64,000 nt of DNA from Escherichia coli (GTDB taxonomy: Bacteria > Pseudomonadota > Gammaproteobacteria > Enterobacterales > Enterobacteriaceae), in the NCBI RefSeq assembly GCF_011045215.1, contig NZ_CP049201.1, one strand, 5' to 3'. A program made the translations under genes and the position numbers. Shown here one piece after another: positions 7,710-41,661 of the stretch (position 1 is the first letter of the stretch; each line of letters starts with the position of its first letter). The notes under the pieces are model-generated. The model had not been told where the DNA came from. It searched no databases and saw only the letters and a program-made list of their open reading frames with translations.

Positions 7710-8069
7710 TTGTGGAGAAAGTTGATGCGTGATATGTATGAAGTTTTAGACCGCTGGGGAGCGTGGGCTGCAGCAGATAACAGTGGTGTGGACTGGCAGC
7801 CGATAGCAGCAGGCTTTAAGGGGCTTTTACCTCATGGTAAAAAAATACGCCTTCAGTGTGATGATGATGAAGGCATCATGATAGACGGCTGTGTTGCCCG
7901 CCTGTGTAAGTATAAACCAGACGAATATGAGCTGATCATTGCTCACTTCGTTATAGGTATTTCACTGCGTTCTATTGCGAAGAGACGCAGATGCTCAGAT
8001 GGAACAATCCGGAAGCAATTGCAGACTGCGTTAGGTTTCATTAATGGGGTTATGTACATGCTCAAGTAA
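7710..8069 (+). CDS. Phage antitermination protein Q-like, 119 aa
   Basis: Small basic protein with Cys cluster and C-terminal HTH-like segment (IAHFVIGISLRSIAKRRRCSDGTIRKQL), at the canonical Q position upstream of the lysis cassette. Confidence 0.6.
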   Translation: MWRKLMRDMYEVLDRWGAWAAADNSGVDWQPIAAGFKGLLPHGKKIRLQCDDDEGIMIDGCVARLCKYKPDEYELIIAHFVIGISLRSIAKRRRCSDGTIRKQLQTALGFINGVMYMLK

Positions 8070-9288
8070 TATTTGGCATTAATTTAAATAAAATACCGAT
8101 GATGCCTATGAATGTAGGCATCCATGCTAGTGATAATAAACTGTCAAGCACCTTATGACAAAAATCCTCATTGTCATTTAATTTTTTAATAGCCTCTTCT
8201 AAGCTCTCTTTAAGATCGCTGGTGTCATCCTTTATTCTATATCTTAATTGTCCAAAAAGTATTTCTTTAGAGTGTGAAATACGAGCAAGTTGTTTTTTTT
8301 GTGACACAATCATTGCAGATGTTATTATTGCTGTGATAATCAATCCAATTAAAGCAATAATCCAATCAGCTTTTGTTGTTAATTTGAAAATAGCAATTGA
8401 ACCAGCTAGTGAAATAGGTATTGCAAGAGCTTTGTTAGAAATTTCTGAAATTATTTTTGACAGTTTTTCTGAGTAATCGAGTTCAGCATCAACAACTTCT
8501 TTCCTTGCTTTATGAAAAGAAAATGCCGATATATAAGCAGCTAAGTTGTTCGTATAAAGTTCGCATATGAAATCCCACTTGTTAATTAACTCGACAAAGG
8601 AATTTCCATTTTTATTAACATACTCAATAACTGTGTTTCTGAAAGTGTTAATCTTTTCAATGTGATGGGCATCAGTAGTAGCTTCACTACTTACTAATGT
8701 TTTAACTAACTGAGTATTTACTGTTTTATCATTAAAAATTTCTTCTGTAATATTTGTTTCAATTACAGCAGAAGAAGATTTAGACTCTGAGTTTAAAATA
8801 AAGACTAAACGATAAAATGTACCTTTGCTATCTTTTTTTATATCATGGAAATGAGCAAGCATGGAAAGAGCATTGATTAGCTCACAAATGTCCTCAATTT
8901 TTTGGATATAAGAAGGTTTTGGTGTTTCTAATGAATAGAAATCATCCTCTATAATATAGAAATACTCTGGCATTATGCCTTTCTTGAGCGTGTTTATTTT
9001 TACAAACTCGTTTTTATTTTTATAAAAACGATTCGCACTTCCTTGTGAAATTTTAAACGAGTATGTAAGAAAATTTCCCTTTTCAGGAAAGTCTTCATAA
9101 TCATAAATTAAATGACCATCCACCTCTATTTCGTCAGCTGTACCAGCTTGAAAAGTAGGGTTCAAAATTCTTTTGAACAATGATTTTACGTCTGCATTAT
9201 AAGCTATACGCGCAGAAAACTTAGCCCCGTCAAAATGAGGATAGCTTGATAATCTATACAGATTAACTATTATACTAAAATCATTCAT
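8062..9288 (-). CDS. Membrane protein, 408 aa, three predicted TM helices in C-terminal third; candidate effector of two-gene cassette
   Basis: ATG overlaps upstream gene stop (ATGA at 9285..9288); hydrophobic helices (ALAIPISLAGSIAIFKL, WIIALIGLIITAIITSAMIV, LLSLAWMPTFIGIIGILFKLM); AT-rich codon usage. Confidence 0.7.
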   Translation of the reverse strand: MNDFSIIVNLYRLSSYPHFDGAKFSARIAYNADVKSLFKRILNPTFQAGTADEIEVDGHLIYDYEDFPEKGNFLTYSFKISQGSANRFYKNKNEFVKINTLKKGIMPEYFYIIEDDFYSLETPKPSYIQKIEDICELINALSMLAHFHDIKKDSKGTFYRLVFILNSESKSSSAVIETNITEEIFNDKTVNTQLVKTLVSSEATTDAHHIEKINTFRNTVIEYVNKNGNSFVELINKWDFICELYTNNLAAYISAFSFHKARKEVVDAELDYSEKLSKIISEISNKALAIPISLAGSIAIFKLTTKADWIIALIGLIITAIITSAMIVSQKKQLARISHSKEILFGQLRYRIKDDTSDLKESLEEAIKKLNDNEDFCHKVLDSLLSLAWMPTFIGIIGILFKLMPNIT

Positions 9289-10451
9289 TCTTTATCTTCT
9301 TCATTACTCGGGTTATCAGTTTCTTTCAACGCTCTTCTTATCTTAGTTAATGCTTCAACAGGCAAATTATTAAATGTTAGGCTTTGGTTTTCGTCATCAT
9401 AATATATTTTAGCATCAGTTGTGACACCGAGTAAATCCTTGTCGAAGTGAAAGCTCAATGATGGGGTTTTATATATCACATTGCGGATTTTATCTAAGGA
9501 GTTTTTATTGATTACGAACTCTGATGGGATTCTGACTTCCTCACTATTGAGGTGTTTCATTAATTTATCAACAAGTTCTGTTTTTTCTTCCTCTTTTAAA
9601 TAGGACATATGGCCTGAAGCAAGCGATTCGATATCAGAAAGCCTTGCAGAGTGCTCGTTGTCAAATTGCTTTTCTAAGTATTTGATAACATCATTTCTAA
9701 ATGACTCTGCTTGATTTTTTAAAAGAGGTTCTTTCTTAAAGAAACGCCTTATTTCATCTGGTAACTTACGGGTTGCGCCTGCTGAAGCAATCCCCTTGTC
9801 ACATCCTAATGCTGCTATAAAATATGCTGCCGCTGACTGTCCCGTAGTTTTGCTTATAAAGCTTAGATAACTTAAGTCTGTTTTTTTTAAATCATCTGCT
9901 TTTTGGTATTCTTCATAATATCTGAAATTTATTTTTGCTGCTTGGTTAATATTACCAAGTTCTAAGTGAATCATTTCCTCTGGCTCTAAATTTTCACTAA
10001 TAGTTACGCCATTAGTTTTTTTGATCATTGTAACCAATAGATAACGGAAACCAGATAAAATATAATCAGTAAAAACAACATATCCTCCAGAAGCCCAAAT
10101 CTGCTCTTGAGCAGATTTATACATTTGTTTCATAACTTCCTTCGATAATTCAATGAAATCATTTGAAACAGATTGTTGAACTAAAGAGTATTTATGAAAT
10201 AGTTCTGGTATAGGGCCTTGTTTTGTTTTATTTTTAATAAAAACACCATAATGCGCTGAGTTCCCTTTTGAACCATACAAATCAATAACACCGTCTACTA
10301 ATTTTTTTACTATATCATTTGTTTTATCTAGTTCTGTATCACGAAGATTGTATGGTTTGGAGTGATCGAAGTCTTTATTAGATTCTTTTAAGAGCTCATG
10401 AACGATTACGTGGCGTATGCTTGCTTTGCTCATTTTTTTGGTCAATTCCAT
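9285..10451 (-). CDS. NdpA/YejK-like (NA37 family) nucleoid-associated-protein homologue, 388 aa; candidate sensor of two-gene cassette
   Basis: Motif-level resemblance to recalled E. coli YejK: N-terminal IRHVIVHELLK, central GGYVVFTDY...YLLVTMIK...ISENLEP, YLSFISKTTGQSAAAYF, C-terminal SLTFNNLP. AT-rich (~30% G+C in a 60-nt spot check). Confidence 0.75.
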   Translation of the reverse strand: MELTKKMSKASIRHVIVHELLKESNKDFDHSKPYNLRDTELDKTNDIVKKLVDGVIDLYGSKGNSAHYGVFIKNKTKQGPIPELFHKYSLVQQSVSNDFIELSKEVMKQMYKSAQEQIWASGGYVVFTDYILSGFRYLLVTMIKKTNGVTISENLEPEEMIHLELGNINQAAKINFRYYEEYQKADDLKKTDLSYLSFISKTTGQSAAAYFIAALGCDKGIASAGATRKLPDEIRRFFKKEPLLKNQAESFRNDVIKYLEKQFDNEHSARLSDIESLASGHMSYLKEEEKTELVDKLMKHLNSEEVRIPSEFVINKNSLDKIRNVIYKTPSLSFHFDKDLLGVTTDAKIYYDDENQSLTFNNLPVEALTKIRRALKETDNPSNEEDKE

Positions 10452-11050: not shown

Positions 11051-12103
11051 ATGAAAAATACTGTAAAAATAAACAGTGTTGATTTAATCAACGCTGATTG
11101 CCTGCATTTTATTCAGTCCTTGCCTGATGATTCCATTGATCTGATTGTTACCGATCCGCCGTACTTCAAAGTGAAGCCCAACGGCTGGGACAATCAGTGG
11201 AAAGGGGACGAAGATTACCTGAAGTGGCTGGACTACTGTCTGGCCCAGTTCTGGCGGGTACTGAAACCAGCCGGAAGCCTTTACCTGTTCTGTGGACATC
11301 GCCTGGCATCTGATATTGAGATCATGATGCGTGAACGTTTCAACGTGCTTAACCATATCATCTGGGCGAAGCCGTCCGGACGTTGGAATGGGTGTAATAA
11401 AGAAAGTCTGCGCGCATATTTTCCTGCCACAGAGCGCGTTCTGTTTGCTGAACATTACCAGGGGCCATATCGCGGCAAAAGTGACGGCTATGCGGCAAAA
11501 GAAAGGGAACTCAAACAGCACATAATGGCACCGCTGATATCGTATTTCAGGGATGCTCGTGCCGAACTGGGTATAACGGCAAAACAAATTGCCGAAGCCA
11601 CAGGTAAGAAAAATATGGTTTCCCACTGGTTTGGTGCCAGTCAGTGGCAGTTGCCGAATGAGGCTGACTATCGGAAGTTACAGGCACTGTTTTCCCGTAT
11701 AGCGGCAGAGAAGTTTCAGGAACAACAACTGGAACAACCACACCACCAGCTGGTGGCATCTTATGATTCACTGAATCGCAAATATTCTGAATTGCTGGAT
11801 GAGTTTAAATCTCTCCGGCGCTATTTCTCCGTATCAGTCTCCGTGCCTTATACCGATGTCTGGATGCATAAACCCGTTCAGTTCTACCCGGGTAAACATC
11901 CGTGTGAGAAACCTGCGGATATGCTCCGGCAAATAATCAATGCCAGTAGTCGACCTGGTGATCTGGTTGCTGATTTTTTTATGGGATCCGGTTCCACAAT
12001 AAAAGCAGCAATGGCGCTGGGGCGTCGGGCCTTAGGTGTTGAGCTTGAGTCAGAGCGGTTTAACCAGACAGTGAAAGAGATATACGAGCTGGTGGGGAAA
12101 TAA
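11051..12103 (+). CDS. Orphan DNA N6-adenine/N4-cytosine methyltransferase (beta class)
   Basis: Catalytic DPPY motif near N-terminus (LIVTDPPYF) and AdoMet-binding FxGxG near C-terminus (DFFMGSGST); no cognate endonuclease gene adjacent. Confidence 0.85.
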   Translation: MKNTVKINSVDLINADCLHFIQSLPDDSIDLIVTDPPYFKVKPNGWDNQWKGDEDYLKWLDYCLAQFWRVLKPAGSLYLFCGHRLASDIEIMMRERFNVLNHIIWAKPSGRWNGCNKESLRAYFPATERVLFAEHYQGPYRGKSDGYAAKERELKQHIMAPLISYFRDARAELGITAKQIAEATGKKNMVSHWFGASQWQLPNEADYRKLQALFSRIAAEKFQEQQLEQPHHQLVASYDSLNRKYSELLDEFKSLRRYFSVSVSVPYTDVWMHKPVQFYPGKHPCEKPADMLRQIINASSRPGDLVADFFMGSGSTIKAAMALGRRALGVELESERFNQTVKEIYELVGK

Positions 12104-36300: not shown

Positions 36301-36728
36301 CGTCGTTTGATTACGGAACCAAATCCACGAATAACACCGGGGCGCATACCCATAGTATTAGCGGGACTGCAAATAGTGCCGGTGCGCACCAACACAAGAG
36401 TTCCGGTGCATTTGGTGGCACGAACACGAGCATTTTTCCTAATGGTTATACTGCGATTTCAAATCCAAGCGCGGGGATTATGAGCACAACAAGCGGTACT
36501 GGCCAGACTCGTAATGCAGGGAAGACATCATCAGATGGTGCTCATACCCACTCACTGTCCGGCACTGCTGCAAGCGCAGGTGCACACGCACATACTGTCG
36601 GTATTGGTGCTCATACGCACTCCGTTGCGATTGGTTCACATGGACACACCATCACCGTTAACGCTGCTGGTAACGCGGAAAACACCGTCAAAAACATCGC
36701 ATTTAACTATATTGTGAGGCTTGCATAA
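33327..36728 (+). CDS. stf: Side tail fibre (lambda Stf-like), ~1134 aa with long Ala/Ser/Thr-rich repeat region and His-rich C-terminal repeats
   Basis: N-terminus [26 protein letters not shown] and C-terminus [31 protein letters not shown] match recalled lambda Stf; repeats SAA.TSETNA and GAHTHS. Confidence 0.85.
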
Positions 36729-37309
36729 TGGCATTCAGAATGAGTGAACAACCACGGACCATAAAAATTTATAATCTGCTGGCCGGAACTAATGAATTTA
36801 TTGGTGAAGGTGACGCATATATTCCACCTCATACAGGTCTGCCAGCAAACAGTACCGATATTGCACCGCCAGATATTCCGGCAGGCTTCGTGGCTGTTTT
36901 CAACAGTGATGAGGCATCGTGGCATCTTGTTGAAGACCATCGGGGTAAAACGGTTTATGACGTGGCTTCCGGCGACGCGTTATTTATTTCTGAACTCGGC
37001 TTATTACCGGAAAATGTCACCTGGTTATCCCCGGAAGGGGAGTTTCAGAAGTGGAACGGCACAGCCTGGGTGAAAGATGCAGAAGCAGAAAAACTGTTCC
37101 GGATCCGGGAGGCGGAAGAAACAAAAAACAACCTGATGCAGGTAGCCAGTGAGCATATTGCGCCACTTCAGGATGCTGTAGATCTGGAAATCGCAACGGA
37201 GGAAGAAAACTCGTTGCTGGAAGCCTGGAAGAAGTATCGGGTGTTGCTGAACCGTGTTGATACATCAACTGCACCTGATATTGAGTGGCCTGTAATACCA
37301 GAAGTTTAA
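36728..37309 (+). CDS. tfa: Tail fibre assembly protein (lambda Tfa-like)
   Basis: 193 aa; TAATG overlap with stf; followed by hairpin agcccgc...gcgggct at 37316..37345. Confidence 0.8.
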
Positions 37310-37428
37310 AATAAAAGCCCGCTTAAAATATCGCGGGCTTCGAAATATAAATGTATTTTCAGAGGCTAGAGCTTAGGATATCTCAGCGGCAATTAACTTA
37401 TGAGGGATAGCTAAATACCAGAAGATAA

Positions 37429-38319
37429 TTAGTTTTTACTATTTATCTTTGTTTGTGGTTCTCCTTCAGCAAGCTCAGCGCCAGTGACAGGATTGATGTC
37501 TTCATGGGATTTCAACCTTGTTGCCATAGCTTTTATCATAGCTTCTTGCTTGGTCGAAAGATTTATCGAGGCCTTCCCATCCCCACCGTCAACCGCTGGA
37601 ACTGGATCGGAAATATAGTCAAAGTTTTCATCACTGTTCCAACTACCTCTGACGTCTTCACCTTCTGACATGTTGTAATATACGTTTTTGTATTTCTCAA
37701 TTGGTGGTAATTTTCCTGGTGGAAAGGTGTTGCGAATTGAATGTAATGCTTTTTCAAATGAAAGCATGTGTGCTGCTTCCCTGGTCATTAAAAATGCCAG
37801 AGTGTCTTTTACTCCAGGATCATCAGTAACATTAATGAGACGTTCGTAAATGATCTTTGCCCGAGCTTCAGCTGCAATATTTGAACGAAGATCGGCCGTG
37901 ACTTCGCCAATAGTATCAACATAAGCTGCAGTCCAGGGTACTCCAGCTGAATTAGTTAATGCTGGGCCTCCTCCGTAGAGGAGAGAAGTTATATGGCTGT
38001 CATTGCCATTTTGAGTTAAGGAACGGTAAAGCTCAGCTTCATTCTCAGTTCCTTCAGCAAGTGCTCCTTTTGCACCTTTGTTGAGCATACCAACAAGAGA
38101 ACCAATAATTTCGAGATGACTTAGTTCTTCTGTTGCTATGTCCATCAGCATATCCCTTCGGCCTGCATCTTCATCACTTAAGCCTTGAGTGAAGTATCGG
38201 CATGCTGCTGCAAGCTCACCCTGTGGCCCGCCGAATTGTTCTAAAAGTAGATTAGCCAAGCCTGGGTTTGGCTCACTTACACGTACTGTATATTGAAGTT
38301 TTTTCACGTGTCTAAACAT
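37429..38319 (-). CDS. katN: Manganese catalase (KatN-like), 296 aa
   Basis: Mn-catalase ferritin-like features (EELSHLEI, TREAAHM); last gene of a yciGFE-katN-type operon. Confidence 0.8.
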   Translation of the reverse strand: MFRHVKKLQYTVRVSEPNPGLANLLLEQFGGPQGELAAACRYFTQGLSDEDAGRRDMLMDIATEELSHLEIIGSLVGMLNKGAKGALAEGTENEAELYRSLTQNGNDSHITSLLYGGGPALTNSAGVPWTAAYVDTIGEVTADLRSNIAAEARAKIIYERLINVTDDPGVKDTLAFLMTREAAHMLSFEKALHSIRNTFPPGKLPPIEKYKNVYYNMSEGEDVRGSWNSDENFDYISDPVPAVDGGDGKASINLSTKQEAMIKAMATRLKSHEDINPVTGAELAEGEPQTKINSKN

Positions 38320-38337
38320 AATGCCTCCTCAAAAGAA

Positions 38338-38844
38338 TTATTTTTTGGCTTCAACTCCATCAATTTCAGATCTGACCATGAATTGCTCAGTGGTGTCAGG
38401 AATATGGTTAAGAAGCCATTCAGCCATTTGTTTTTCTTCATTAAGAATTGCTTCAATAATGGGTACTGAAGCTGTATCACCCGCATTTTTGGCTGCTGCG
38501 AGAAGAGATGTGTAGCACGCAATTTCAAATTGTTCGAAAACATAGCCACTGATCGAACCTTTGACAATTTCATCAGATGGAAAAATTCCACCAATGGATT
38601 GCCCAAACGCGGCCATTTTACTCATAGAGTCTTTAATGACAGAGCGCGAAATATTATTACGATCAAGTATGCTTTCAAGCTGTGAAAGCTGGTTCTTTGT
38701 TTCGCTAATGTGCTGCTCAATTCTGGAACGTAACTCTGGATAGTTTTCTATCCGGCTGGCCATAGACTCAAGCATTTTTTCAGCTTGTTTCTCCATCGCA
38801 TGTGCATCACGAAGCCAGTCATGGTAATGTTCAATTCTATTCAT
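38338..38844 (-). CDS. yciE: YciE-like ferritin-like (DUF892) stress protein, 168 aa
   Basis: Length and organisation as recalled Salmonella yciGFE-katN operon. Confidence 0.75.
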   Translation of the reverse strand: MNRIEHYHDWLRDAHAMEKQAEKMLESMASRIENYPELRSRIEQHISETKNQLSQLESILDRNNISRSVIKDSMSKMAAFGQSIGGIFPSDEIVKGSISGYVFEQFEIACYTSLLAAAKNAGDTASVPIIEAILNEEKQMAEWLLNHIPDTTEQFMVRSEIDGVEAKK

Positions 38845-38880
38845 AATCTGTTTATCCTAAAAGAAATTGAAGTCTATAGT

Positions 38881-39387
38881 TCAGGAGTTATCCTGAGCTT
38901 TTTTATTAACGTTATTAAATGCCAGGTCTGTTAATTTGACATCAGTAGCTTTTTCCTCTTCCAGTGTTTCTTTCAGGAGTTTAGCCGCTTTTTTATATCC
39001 TAATTGCTCAGCGAGTGTTACCAAAGTGCCATAACTGGCAATTTCATAGTGCTCTACTTTTTGTGCTGCAGCAATCAATGCAGCATCACGTACTTCATTT
39101 TTATCAGTGCTTTCAATTACCTCATTCGCCTCTTCGATAAGTCCTTCCATTGCGGCACACTTAATTCTTTTCAATTTAAGACCATCTTCAGAATCAACAA
39201 TCTGATCGATGCGTTCAATTTGACCATGTGTCTCATCAAGATGTGACTGAAAAGCAGCGGTTAATTTATCACTATATGCAGAGCGACTAAGTTTAGACAG
39301 TGCCTTTGTTAGTTGTTTCTCAGCGCTGTATGTATCCGATAATAAGTGGATGAAGATATCTTCAACAGATTTAATTTGCATAATCAC
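38881..39387 (-). CDS. yciF: YciF-like ferritin-like (DUF892) stress protein, 168 aa
   Basis: Paralogue of the adjacent gene; same size. Confidence 0.75.
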   Translation of the reverse strand: MIMQIKSVEDIFIHLLSDTYSAEKQLTKALSKLSRSAYSDKLTAAFQSHLDETHGQIERIDQIVDSEDGLKLKRIKCAAMEGLIEEANEVIESTDKNEVRDAALIAAAQKVEHYEIASYGTLVTLAEQLGYKKAAKLLKETLEEEKATDVKLTDLAFNNVNKKAQDNS

Positions 39388-39459
39388 TCCAGAGTTTTCA
39401 CTGCGAGCCCGTAGGCTCGCAGTTAGCTTCAGTTATTCACGAATGTAGGGGATGATAAA

Positions 39460-39642
39460 TTAAGAGTCAGATTTACGGCCGCCACCATGGCTATTCTGAC
39501 CACCTTTTTTCCCTGCTTCTGATGCTCTTTGTGGATCGTTTTTAAAATTACCGCCACTATGTTGGCCGCCTTTACGACCAGCGTCAGAAGCTTTTTGTCG
39601 ATCTTCAGCGAAATTACCTGCACCGCCACGATGTTCGGTCAT
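39460..39642 (-). CDS. yciG: KGG-repeat stress protein (YciG-like), 60 aa
   Basis: Translation contains repeated KGG/GG motifs (RKGGQHSGG, KKGGQNSHGGG). Confidence 0.75.
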   Translation of the reverse strand: MTEHRGGAGNFAEDRQKASDAGRKGGQHSGGNFKNDPQRASEAGKKGGQNSHGGGRKSDS

Positions 39643-39723
39643 ATCATTTCTCCTCTGATTTTCAAATTGTAAATAACATGTGCCTTGTCAGCACCCAATT
39701 AACTTTAGTAACAAATAAGAAAG

Positions 39724-39770
39724 TGTCAAATAACAGATTGGTATGCGCATTTTGATGTGACAAATAACAG
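39724..39770. repeat. Direct repeat TGTCAAATAACAG / TGACAAATAACAG upstream of yciG-like operon (candidate regulator binding sites)
   Basis: Two near-identical 13-mers 33 bp apart, ~80-130 bp upstream of the operon start in an AT-rich leader. Confidence 0.3.
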
Positions 39771-40377
39771 TTGTAAAAAATATGTGCTCAGTGAGTATAA
39801 TTTATTGATATCTTAGTGATTAATGGGAAGTTTAGGTTGTAACTCAAAAGATTAATATACCCAAATTTACATTTATATATTATTTGATGCTCCTGGTGTT
39901 GTTTTTCTCAATAAGAATACTCTGTAAAATAATTCAATCGTAAGATGGTGGTTATTCATATTTTTGAGATACTTCCTAATAGAGTCCATCCCTTGAATAA
40001 ATAATTGTTTTAAAATTTCGTCTAACAAACTAATTACAAAAACTTTTATATAACCCAAAGAATCATGATTATTCTTAATCGTCAAGATTTGACCGTAAAA
40101 ATTTAAGCACAGAAAATTGTGTGCAAGGATGTGTTGTTCAGTCTGTCGAACTTTCGATAGTTTGAGTATTAAATGATTTCCAGCCGTTATTGATTTTACG
40201 CGTAATTCCATAAAAAACTTATCTGTTGGAGAGTTATTTGGGGCATATATGGGACAGAAATCGGCCCCAGATAGACAGTGAGATCGATCTCAGGACGCTT
40301 TTGAAAAAATGCAACTATCTGAAAAAACGTAGAAAACGCCAAGGAACCCACAGGATGTGAAAAAACACCTGTGAATT

Positions 40378-41661
40378 ATGGATTTCCAGTTATATTCGCT
40401 CGGCGCAGCGTTGGTGTTTCATGAAATATTTTTTCCTGAATCATCAACGGCAATGGCGTTAATTCTGGCAATGGGAACCTACGGTGCAGGTTATGTCGCG
40501 CGTATTGTCGGAGCATTTATTTTCGGCAAAATGGGCGACAGAATAGGGCGTAAAAAAGTGCTCTTTATTACCATCACCATGATGGGGATCTGTACCACCT
40601 TAATTGGTGTGTTACCGACCTATGCACAGATTGGTGTTTTTGCACCCATCTTGCTGGTGACGCTGCGTATTATTCAGGGATTGGGTGCAGGTGCGGAAAT
40701 TTCCGGTGCCGGTACGATGCTGGCGGAATATGCGCCAAAAGGTAAGCGCGGAATTATCTCCTCATTTGTGGCTATGGGAACTAACTGCGGAACCTTAAGC
40801 GCAACGGCAATCTGGGCCTTTATGTTCTTCATTCTCAGTAAAGAGGAACTGCTGGCGTGGGGATGGCGTATACCGTTCCTGGCGAGCGTTGTCGTGATGG
40901 TCTTTGCTATCTGGTTGCGTATGAATCTGAAAGAAAGCCCGGTCTTTGAGAAGGTTAACGACAGCAACCAACCAACAGCAAAACCTGCACCTGCTGGTAG
41001 CATGTTCCAGAGCAAATCCTTCTGGCTGGCAACAGGGCTGCGTTTTGGTCAGGCAGGTAACTCCGGATTAATTCAGACTTTCCTTGCAGGCTATTTAGTG
41101 CAGACGTTATTGTTTAACAAAGCAATTCCAACAGATGCATTGATGATCAGTTCGATTCTCGGCTTTATGACCATTCCGTTCCTTGGTTGGTTATCCGATA
41201 AAATTGGTCGCCGGATCCCGTATATTATTATGAATACCTCCGCGATTGTGCTGGCATGGCCAATGCTTTCTATCATCGTAGATAAAAGCTATGCCCCGAG
41301 CACCATTATGGTTGCACTGATTGTGATTCATAACAGTGCGGTGCTGGGATTATTTGCTCTGGAAAATATTACCATGGCAGAAATGTTTGGTTGTAAAAAC
41401 CGCTTTACCCGGATGGCTATTTCAAAAGAAATTGGTGGTCTTATCGCTTCCGGTTTTGGTCCTATCCTGGCAGGTATTTTCTGCACCATGACGGAATCCT
41501 GGTATCCGATCGCCATTATGATCATGGCATATTCAGTGATTGGTTTAATCTCTGCGCTGAAAATGCCAGAAGTGAAAGACCGTGATTTAAGTGCGCTGGA
41601 AGACGCTGCGGAAGATCAACCGCGTGTTGTAAGAGCTGCGCAACCTTCCAGAAGTCTGTAA
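40378..41661 (+). pseudogene. ydfJ: ydfJ, MFS transporter, N-terminally truncated by prophage insertion (3' fragment)
   Basis: 427-aa ORF begins directly at the GxxFFP region; first TM helix (~40 aa) of the ProP/ShiA-type fold is missing; in-frame stop immediately upstream. Confidence 0.65.

Follow-up and report, generated by a model that had tools for sequence, protein, structure and literature searches.

Gene content of the cassette

A stretch of 64,000 nucleotides from Escherichia coli (assembly GCF_011045215.1, contig NZ_CP049201.1; the whole stretch is called the window below) carries a four-gene cassette, yciG-yciF-yciE-katN, at the end of a lambdoid prophage inserted in ydfJ. The cassette comprises four intact open reading frames (ORFs), all on the minus strand, lying between the tail fibre assembly gene tfa and a truncated ydfJ, both on the plus strand. 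An earlier sequence-only reading had recognised a minus-strand operon of a KGG-repeat protein, two DUF892 proteins and a manganese catalase here, and both the ORF coordinates and the Pfam matches agree with it.

The gene katN (37429..38319, minus strand) encodes a dimanganese, non-haem Mn catalase of 296 amino acids (Pfam PF05067, E=1.1e-86). The protein covers positions 1-261 of the 284 positions of the Mn_catalase model, a full-length family match, and scores 167 bits against the NCBIfam equivalog ManCatBAC, under its cut-off of 350. By these profile scores KatN is a member of the Mn catalase family that falls outside the ManCatBAC equivalog. It matches the Mn catalases of known structure 6J42 (Anabaena KatB, E=5e-47) and 1JKU (Lactobacillus plantarum, E=5e-35). 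In the 1JKU alignment E35, E65, H68, E151, and H184 of KatN are paired with the five dimanganese ligands of the L. plantarum enzyme, which we take to be Glu35, Glu66, His69, Glu148, and His181 (numbering of Barynin et al., 2001).

Two DUF892 ferritin-like proteins are encoded upstream of katN. The yciE-like gene (38338..38844, minus strand) specifies 168 amino acids (PF05974, E=1.4e-50) and its product matches E. coli YciE (PDB 3OGH, E=3e-97). The yciF-like gene (38881..39387, minus strand; PF05974, E=3.5e-54) encodes 168 amino acids if translation starts at the GTG at 39387 and 166 if it starts at the ATG at 39381, which is the RefSeq start; the product matches E. coli YciF (PDB 2GS4, E=2e-82). 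The first gene, yciG-like (39460..39642, minus strand), encodes a general stress protein of 60 amino acids with two KGG repeats (Pfam PF10685). The genes follow each other in the order yciG-yciF-yciE-katN with gaps of 72-78, 36, and 18 nt, each is preceded by a Shine-Dalgarno sequence, and PHROG families exist for all four proteins.

Nonsynonymous divergence (dN) is 0.05-0.13 and synonymous sites are saturated against every comparator, so that the ratio of nonsynonymous to synonymous divergence (dN/dS) could not be computed. Judged by this substitution pattern, the four genes are under purifying selection. Saturated synonymous sites together with low dN indicate an old, selectively maintained operon lineage and not a recent copy of the E. 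coli yciGFE genes.

Prophage boundaries and attachment site

Because the window opens within the prophage's immunity and replication region, the integrase gene and the left attachment site (attL) lie outside it. Its closest match among the complete E. coli genomes searched is strain 55989 (99.4% identity), in which the equivalent prophage spans from an integrase adjoining rspB to the ydfJ junction. The late genes of the prophage end with tfa (36728..37309, plus strand), which adjoins the cassette on its left. This gene matches the PHROG family phrog_105 ('tail fiber assembly', E=3e-99), and its counterpart in 55989 is annotated tfaQ. The cassette is transcribed against the direction of the phage late operon and has, in silico, a promoter-like site and a terminator-like hairpin of its own.

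On the right, the phage attachment arm and the right attachment site (attR) occupy 40152..40386 and are about 91% identical to att regions of phages and prophage ends; for the arm itself (40152-40375) the same identity is found with the att region of phages mEp460, HannyBb, and Tritos and with Qin-type prophage ends. The attR core, TTATGGATTTC, lies at 40376-40386 within the truncated ydfJ, and the same core is present at attL of 55989. This position confirms the earlier placing of the operon between the tail fibre assembly gene and the ydfJ junction, and it puts the cassette 0.73 kb inside attR.

The truncated ydfJ (40378..41661, plus strand; NCBIfam TIGR00883, E=3.7e-135) forms the host side of the junction and is followed by ydfI. 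It has lost its 5' end and retains 427 of 455 codons; the 28 N-terminal codons absent at attR are found at attL in 55989, where ydfJ is annotated as a pseudogene ('missing N-terminus'). An ATG at 40378, within the attR core, is in frame with ydfJ, and an N-terminally truncated YdfJ of 427 amino acids could be translated if transcription comes from the phage side.

Distribution among E. coli genomes

The survey covered 5426 complete E. coli genomes. Empty sites were sought with a synthetic query joining the 3' end of rspB to an intact ydfJ, and end-to-end matches were counted. Such matches, that is uninterrupted rspB-ydfJ junctions, were found in 2008 of the 5426 genomes, which shows that the prophage-free sites are without the cassette. 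The sequence-only reading had noted that the presence of the operon at this chromosomal position in prophage-free strains would speak against phage cargo; all 2008 intact junctions lack it.

The cassette itself is present in 381 of the 5426 genomes (about 7%), always on the chromosome and never (0) on a plasmid. It occupies ydfJ in only five genomes, adjoining tfaQ in all of them. Its other sites, also in prophages, are ompT/appY/envY, zinT, bioA-ybhB (the lambda site), and CP-933X of O157:H7, and at every locus inspected it follows a tfa, complete or truncated, at a distance of 119 bp. Other prophages at ydfJ hold alternative cargo in the same slot, namely pinQ-ydfK-ynfT, three DUF1076 genes (which we take to be NleG-like) with a DinI-like gene, or a hypothetical gene. 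The location inside attR, the empty sites without the cassette and its recurrence at several prophage sites together support the earlier claim that the operon is prophage cargo in the position of the b region.

Roughly 80-85% of the carriers among the matches listed look like O157:H7. The same matches include about 50 diverse non-O157 carriers, many of them commensal or environmental, with the cassette at several prophage sites; isolates from river water, pigs, rodents, bat, otter, and baboon are among them. Nine viral contigs of IMG/VR encode a KatN that is 97-100% identical to the one in the window.

Several further observations concern the module in other prophages. Decayed cassettes occur occasionally: in fS54a katN is split by IS903B, and Z0117EC0098 retains 54% of the cassette. 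In O157 and in prophages at the ompT site a class I S-adenosylmethionine (SAM)-dependent methyltransferase gene follows the cassette (L002, 14840-15813; L009, 7847-8832; L010, 7848-8516), and in L002 and L009 a truncated second copy of tfa lies beyond the methyltransferase gene. Sequence arrangement of this kind suggests that recombination between tfa copies inserted or exchanged the module. The 3' end of tfa in the window contains a full-length match to Rfam IS009 (RF02111; 37071-37269, plus strand) that scores 227.6 bits, the gathering score being 117. In every prophage examined, the conserved tfa 3' segment with this match is what the cassette has as its unvarying left junction. The IS009 match was the sole real one in an Rfam scan of 36500-41000, which returned nothing in the cargo.

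Composition and regulatory signals

The cargo (37310-40375) has a guanine plus cytosine (GC) content of 38.8%, whereas the remainder of the prophage (1-37309) has 50.9% and the chromosomal flank 48.2%; the AT-richness reported in the sequence-only reading is thus borne out. The lowest value, 28.9%, is reached upstream of yciG (39643-40151).

A promoter, PyciG, is predicted at 39699..39729 (minus strand), with 10 of 12 matches in a consensus scan and conservation in all cassette copies. It consists of a -35 hexamer TTGACA (39729-39724), a 16-nt spacer and a -10 hexamer TAAAGT (39707-39702), the latter contained in the extended -10 CTAAAGTTAA (39708-39699) with a C at -13 and a downstream TAA. 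A C at -13 and a TAA after the -10 are consensus features of sigma-S promoters. Nine regions upstream of yciG were aligned (window, O157:H7, K-12, Salmonella enterica subsp. diarizonae, Enterobacter, two Klebsiella species, Leclercia, and Lelliottia), and the sole invariant block was TTTGAC...CTAnnnTTA, i.e., the -35 plus the extended -10 with -13C and the following TAA. The invariance of this block implies that the prophage copy retains the ancestral core promoter of yciG. On this alignment the PyciG core, with its sigma-S-type features, is homologous to the promoters of chromosomal yciG genes in other Enterobacteriaceae.

The sequence-only reading had spoken of a long AT-rich leader. The AT-rich DNA exists, but most of it lies upstream of the predicted promoter, whose position (39729-39702) would leave an mRNA leader of only about 50 nt. 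Upstream of the promoter, the non-coding DNA at 39771..40151 has a GC content of about 29% and moves together with the cassette; judging from its composition, it is a probable H-NS-bound silencing region. In all, about 0.45 kb of 29%-GC upstream DNA is carried along. In other prophages the shared module breaks off on the right near window positions 40113, 40136, 40198, and 40207. An ORF of 112 amino acids in this interval (39873-40211) was rejected as a gene, being broken in other cassette copies and matching neither PHROG nor NCBIfam.

At the other end, directly after katN and between the convergent tfa and katN genes, an intrinsic terminator is predicted at 37310..37340 (minus strand). It has the form AAGCCCGC-loop-GCGGGCTT, then TTTATT, and folds as RNA into a 9-bp GC-rich stem with a U-run.

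Relation to the copy in O157:H7

The same gene order is found in Z1921-Z1924 of O157:H7 (katN with yciE-, yciF-, and yciG-like genes; the catalase is also ECs_1652), in prophage CP-933X, O-island 52, at 98.9% DNA identity. KatN differs at three of 296 residues (I207L, I236V, and P241S) and YciF at one, and YciE and YciG are identical. The O157 cassette likewise lies 119 bp after tfa on the opposite strand, and its -35 and 5' untranslated region are the same. The -10 has an A in the window for a G in O157. The integration sites and the prophages differ, being the ompT/minCDE region in O157 and ydfJ in the window, and so do the right junctions, where O157 has the SAM methyltransferase gene and a tfa fragment.

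Much is known about the O157:H7 operon. Z1921 was named KatN, and its operon with z1922-z1924 on CP-933X was described as homologous to Salmonella yciGFEkatN (Wan et al., 2017, PMC5363993). Expression of Z1922, Z1923, and Z1924 was 35-, 64-, and 137-fold RpoS-dependent (Dong and Schellhorn, 2009, PMC2907692). In enterohaemorrhagic E. coli (EHEC) RpoS is essential for katN transcription, OxyR promotes it, and H-NS represses it more than 450-fold; a katN deletion mutant grows more poorly under H2O2 (PMC5363993). Catalase ECs_1652 was found in almost all genomes of sequence type 11 (ST11) in a pangenome study (PMC9205054). The operon has already been described and experimentally characterised in O157:H7; in the window the module recurs in another lambdoid prophage, one integrated at ydfJ. 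The gene identities, operon order, b-region position and cargo status given in the sequence-only reading all find support. The phenotypes that it predicted are on record for the near-identical O157 copy, and what it missed was this existing description.

Between yciG and yciF, at 39402..39421 (minus strand), a GC-rich 10-bp hairpin without a U-tract is predicted (fold z-score -3.7), which may be an mRNA-stabilising or attenuating element. Such a hairpin could account for the higher RpoS ratio of the first gene in the O157 operon (137-fold vs 64- and 35-fold).

Relation to chromosomal operons and to other cargo

Four-gene synteny is also found on the chromosomes of Salmonella (subsp. arizonae and diarizonae), Enterobacter, Klebsiella, Leclercia, and Lelliottia, at 77-92% amino-acid identity. 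Compared with the proteins of S. enterica subsp. diarizonae, KatN is 84%, YciE 83%, YciF 81%, and YciG 88% identical. These operons share the gene order and a homologous core promoter with the cassette but are chromosomal and not carried by a prophage, and their upstream DNA past the core promoter cannot be aligned with the window. The Salmonella operon is reported to depend on sigma-S and to have H-NS and YncC as regulators (Robbe-Saule, 2001; Beraud, 2010).

In K-12 the arrangement is trpA-yciG-yciF-yciE-ompW, without katN, as the sequence-only reading had stated. The K-12 paralogues are 83% (YciG), 79.5% (YciF), and 88% (YciE) identical to the cassette proteins and about 74% identical in DNA, and the sigma-S-type promoter core is common to both. 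Since yciGFE is a core locus in nearly all E. coli, the prophage copy adds to it and does not replace it. A donor search over 100,044 species representatives gave a best KatN match of 87% (Kosakonia) and best four-gene matches of 80-92%; with no KatN above 87% among these representatives, no donor was identified.

The slot from tfa to attR is the one that holds the lambda b region, pinQ-ydfK of Qin, and genes for type III secretion system effectors such as nleG, with a variable payload of atypical GC content. Unlike the other cargo of this slot, the payload in the window is an operon for stress and antioxidant functions whose sigma-S promoter is of host type.

Origin and function of the cassette

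The cassette is very probably a self-contained moron, or lysogenic-conversion cassette, at the right end (b-region equivalent) of the ydfJ lambdoid prophage, consisting of a diverged enterobacterial yciG-yciF-yciE-katN stress operon. The function proposed for it in the lysogen draws on the published work on O157:H7 and Salmonella. H-NS would keep the operon silent while cells grow, and RNA polymerase with RpoS would transcribe it once they are under stress or have reached stationary phase. KatN would then dismutate H2O2 at its dimanganese centre, with no need for haem or iron, YciF and YciE would serve as ferritin-like di-metal proteins, and YciG as a small hydrophilic stress protein. Iron binding and ferroxidase activity have been reported for Salmonella YciF (bioRxiv 10.1101/2023.01.20.524870). 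The lysogen would thus gain a second yciGFE set and a catalase that K-12 is without.

Several points weigh against this account. A DNA and protein search of a 50,697-record phage collection found no isolated phage genome with the cassette; the sole matches were two fragments of 1.6-2.2 kb at 84% identity, which is the level of Salmonella KatN and not that of the cassette. Transfer by active virions is accordingly inferred from the multi-site prophage distribution and was not seen. The attL site and the integrase gene were seen solely in the 99.4%-identical locus of 55989. The PyciG promoter, the terminator, and the H-NS target are predictions, and the -10 is one base off that of the O157 copy (TAAAGT here vs TAGAGT). 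An OxyR consensus scan of the upstream DNA gave a best match of 10/16, no better than in shuffled sequences, so that direct OxyR control has no sequence support. Expression and activity in the strain studied would follow by analogy with O157:H7 and Salmonella.

The most serious alternative concerns the role of KatN, which may be chiefly a secreted type VI effector that lowers reactive oxygen species (ROS) in macrophages, and hence a virulence factor, instead of primarily a cytoplasmic stationary-phase enzyme. Secretion of the near-identical EHEC KatN dependent on a type VI secretion system (T6SS), together with lower macrophage ROS, has been reported (PMC5363993), and the claim is repeated in PMC12981562. 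The same operon is, however, chromosomal in many non-pathogenic Enterobacteriaceae, the bat, otter, baboon, rodent, river-water, and pig isolates figure among the approximately 50 non-O157 carriers in the matches listed, and in mice the published katN mutant showed no attenuation (PMC5363993). The 43-kb region around the cassette in 55989 has 47 annotated features, and none of them is a T6SS gene (vgrG, hcp, or PAAR). A primarily effector role is rather unlikely, and the effector and stress-enzyme roles of KatN are compatible with each other, not mutually exclusive.

A broader proposal, which we regard as speculative and improbable as a whole, is that a sigma-S-wired module moves between lambdoid prophages by recombination at the 3' end of tfa (at least five att sites) and is kept since the phage also benefits. 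Removal of H2O2 in lysogens that are stressed or in stationary phase would reduce oxidative DNA damage and with it SOS induction, making lysogeny more stable, and carriage by commensal and wild-animal strains would reflect general fitness and not virulence.

The sequence-only reading had drawn attention to a 13-bp direct repeat in the upstream DNA. The repeat exists, as 14 nt of the form CTGTTATTTG(A/T)CAC at 39723..39736 and 39757..39770 (minus strand; 13/14 identity), one base away from the first coordinate given earlier. Its robustness did not hold up. A functional regulator-binding pair, e.g., for McbR/YncC or another H-NS-countering activator, would fit the 13/14 identity, the spacing of 34 nt from start to start and the position just upstream of and overlapping the -35, and when the 733-nt region was shuffled by dinucleotides, just 4% of the shuffles had an equally good repeat within 100 nt. 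With no limit on distance, however, the proportion was 12%, the distal copy has two to three substitutions in other cassette copies and is better kept in the window than in O157, and the aligned chromosomal yciG promoters show no evident equivalent of the repeat. Conservation of the proximal copy is explained by the -35 hexamer that it contains. A regulatory pair is, on this balance, quite improbable.

Least probable by far is that the cassette is a chromosomal islet at ydfJ, or the remnant of an older element abutting the prophage, instead of phage cargo: its absence from the free phage genomes of the collection and an AT-rich composition distinct from that of the prophage would agree with this, but a phage-type att arm (40152-40375) stands between it and ydfJ and so puts it inside attR, the 2008 intact rspB-ydfJ junctions are without it, and it is at ydfJ in only five genomes and elsewhere behind tfa at ompT/appY, zinT, bioA-ybhB, and in CP-933X, by which this reading is largely refuted.

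Significance

With the cassette read as prophage cargo, the locus shows cleanly how a prophage can bring in an RpoS-controlled antioxidant operon of host type, with a haem-independent catalase absent from the E. coli core genome. To the published description the present analysis adds the exact position of attR, the conservation of a sigma-S-type core promoter, the finding that the repeat is weak, and a multi-site distribution with many non-pathogenic carriers. The approximately 50 non-O157 carriers among the matches listed, many of them commensal or environmental, qualify the published statement that katN is a marker of pathogenic strains. The practical value of these results is confined to annotation and comparative genomics.

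Other features of the prophage

The early region of the prophage contains two overlapping genes at 8062-10451 (minus strand), encoding 408 and 388 amino acids, with weak NCBIfam matches to the two-gene anti-phage system 'DS1'. The match to DS1_2 (NF053869) scored 100.7 bits against a cut-off of 315 and that to DS1_1 (NF053868, YejK-like nucleoid-associated) 98 against 330. A PADLOC 2.0 scan of the pair gave no match. The two genes may, from these profile matches, be distant defence cargo. At 11051-12103 (plus strand) the prophage encodes a type II or orphan adenine DNA methyltransferase (PADLOC PDLC03265, E=4e-151).

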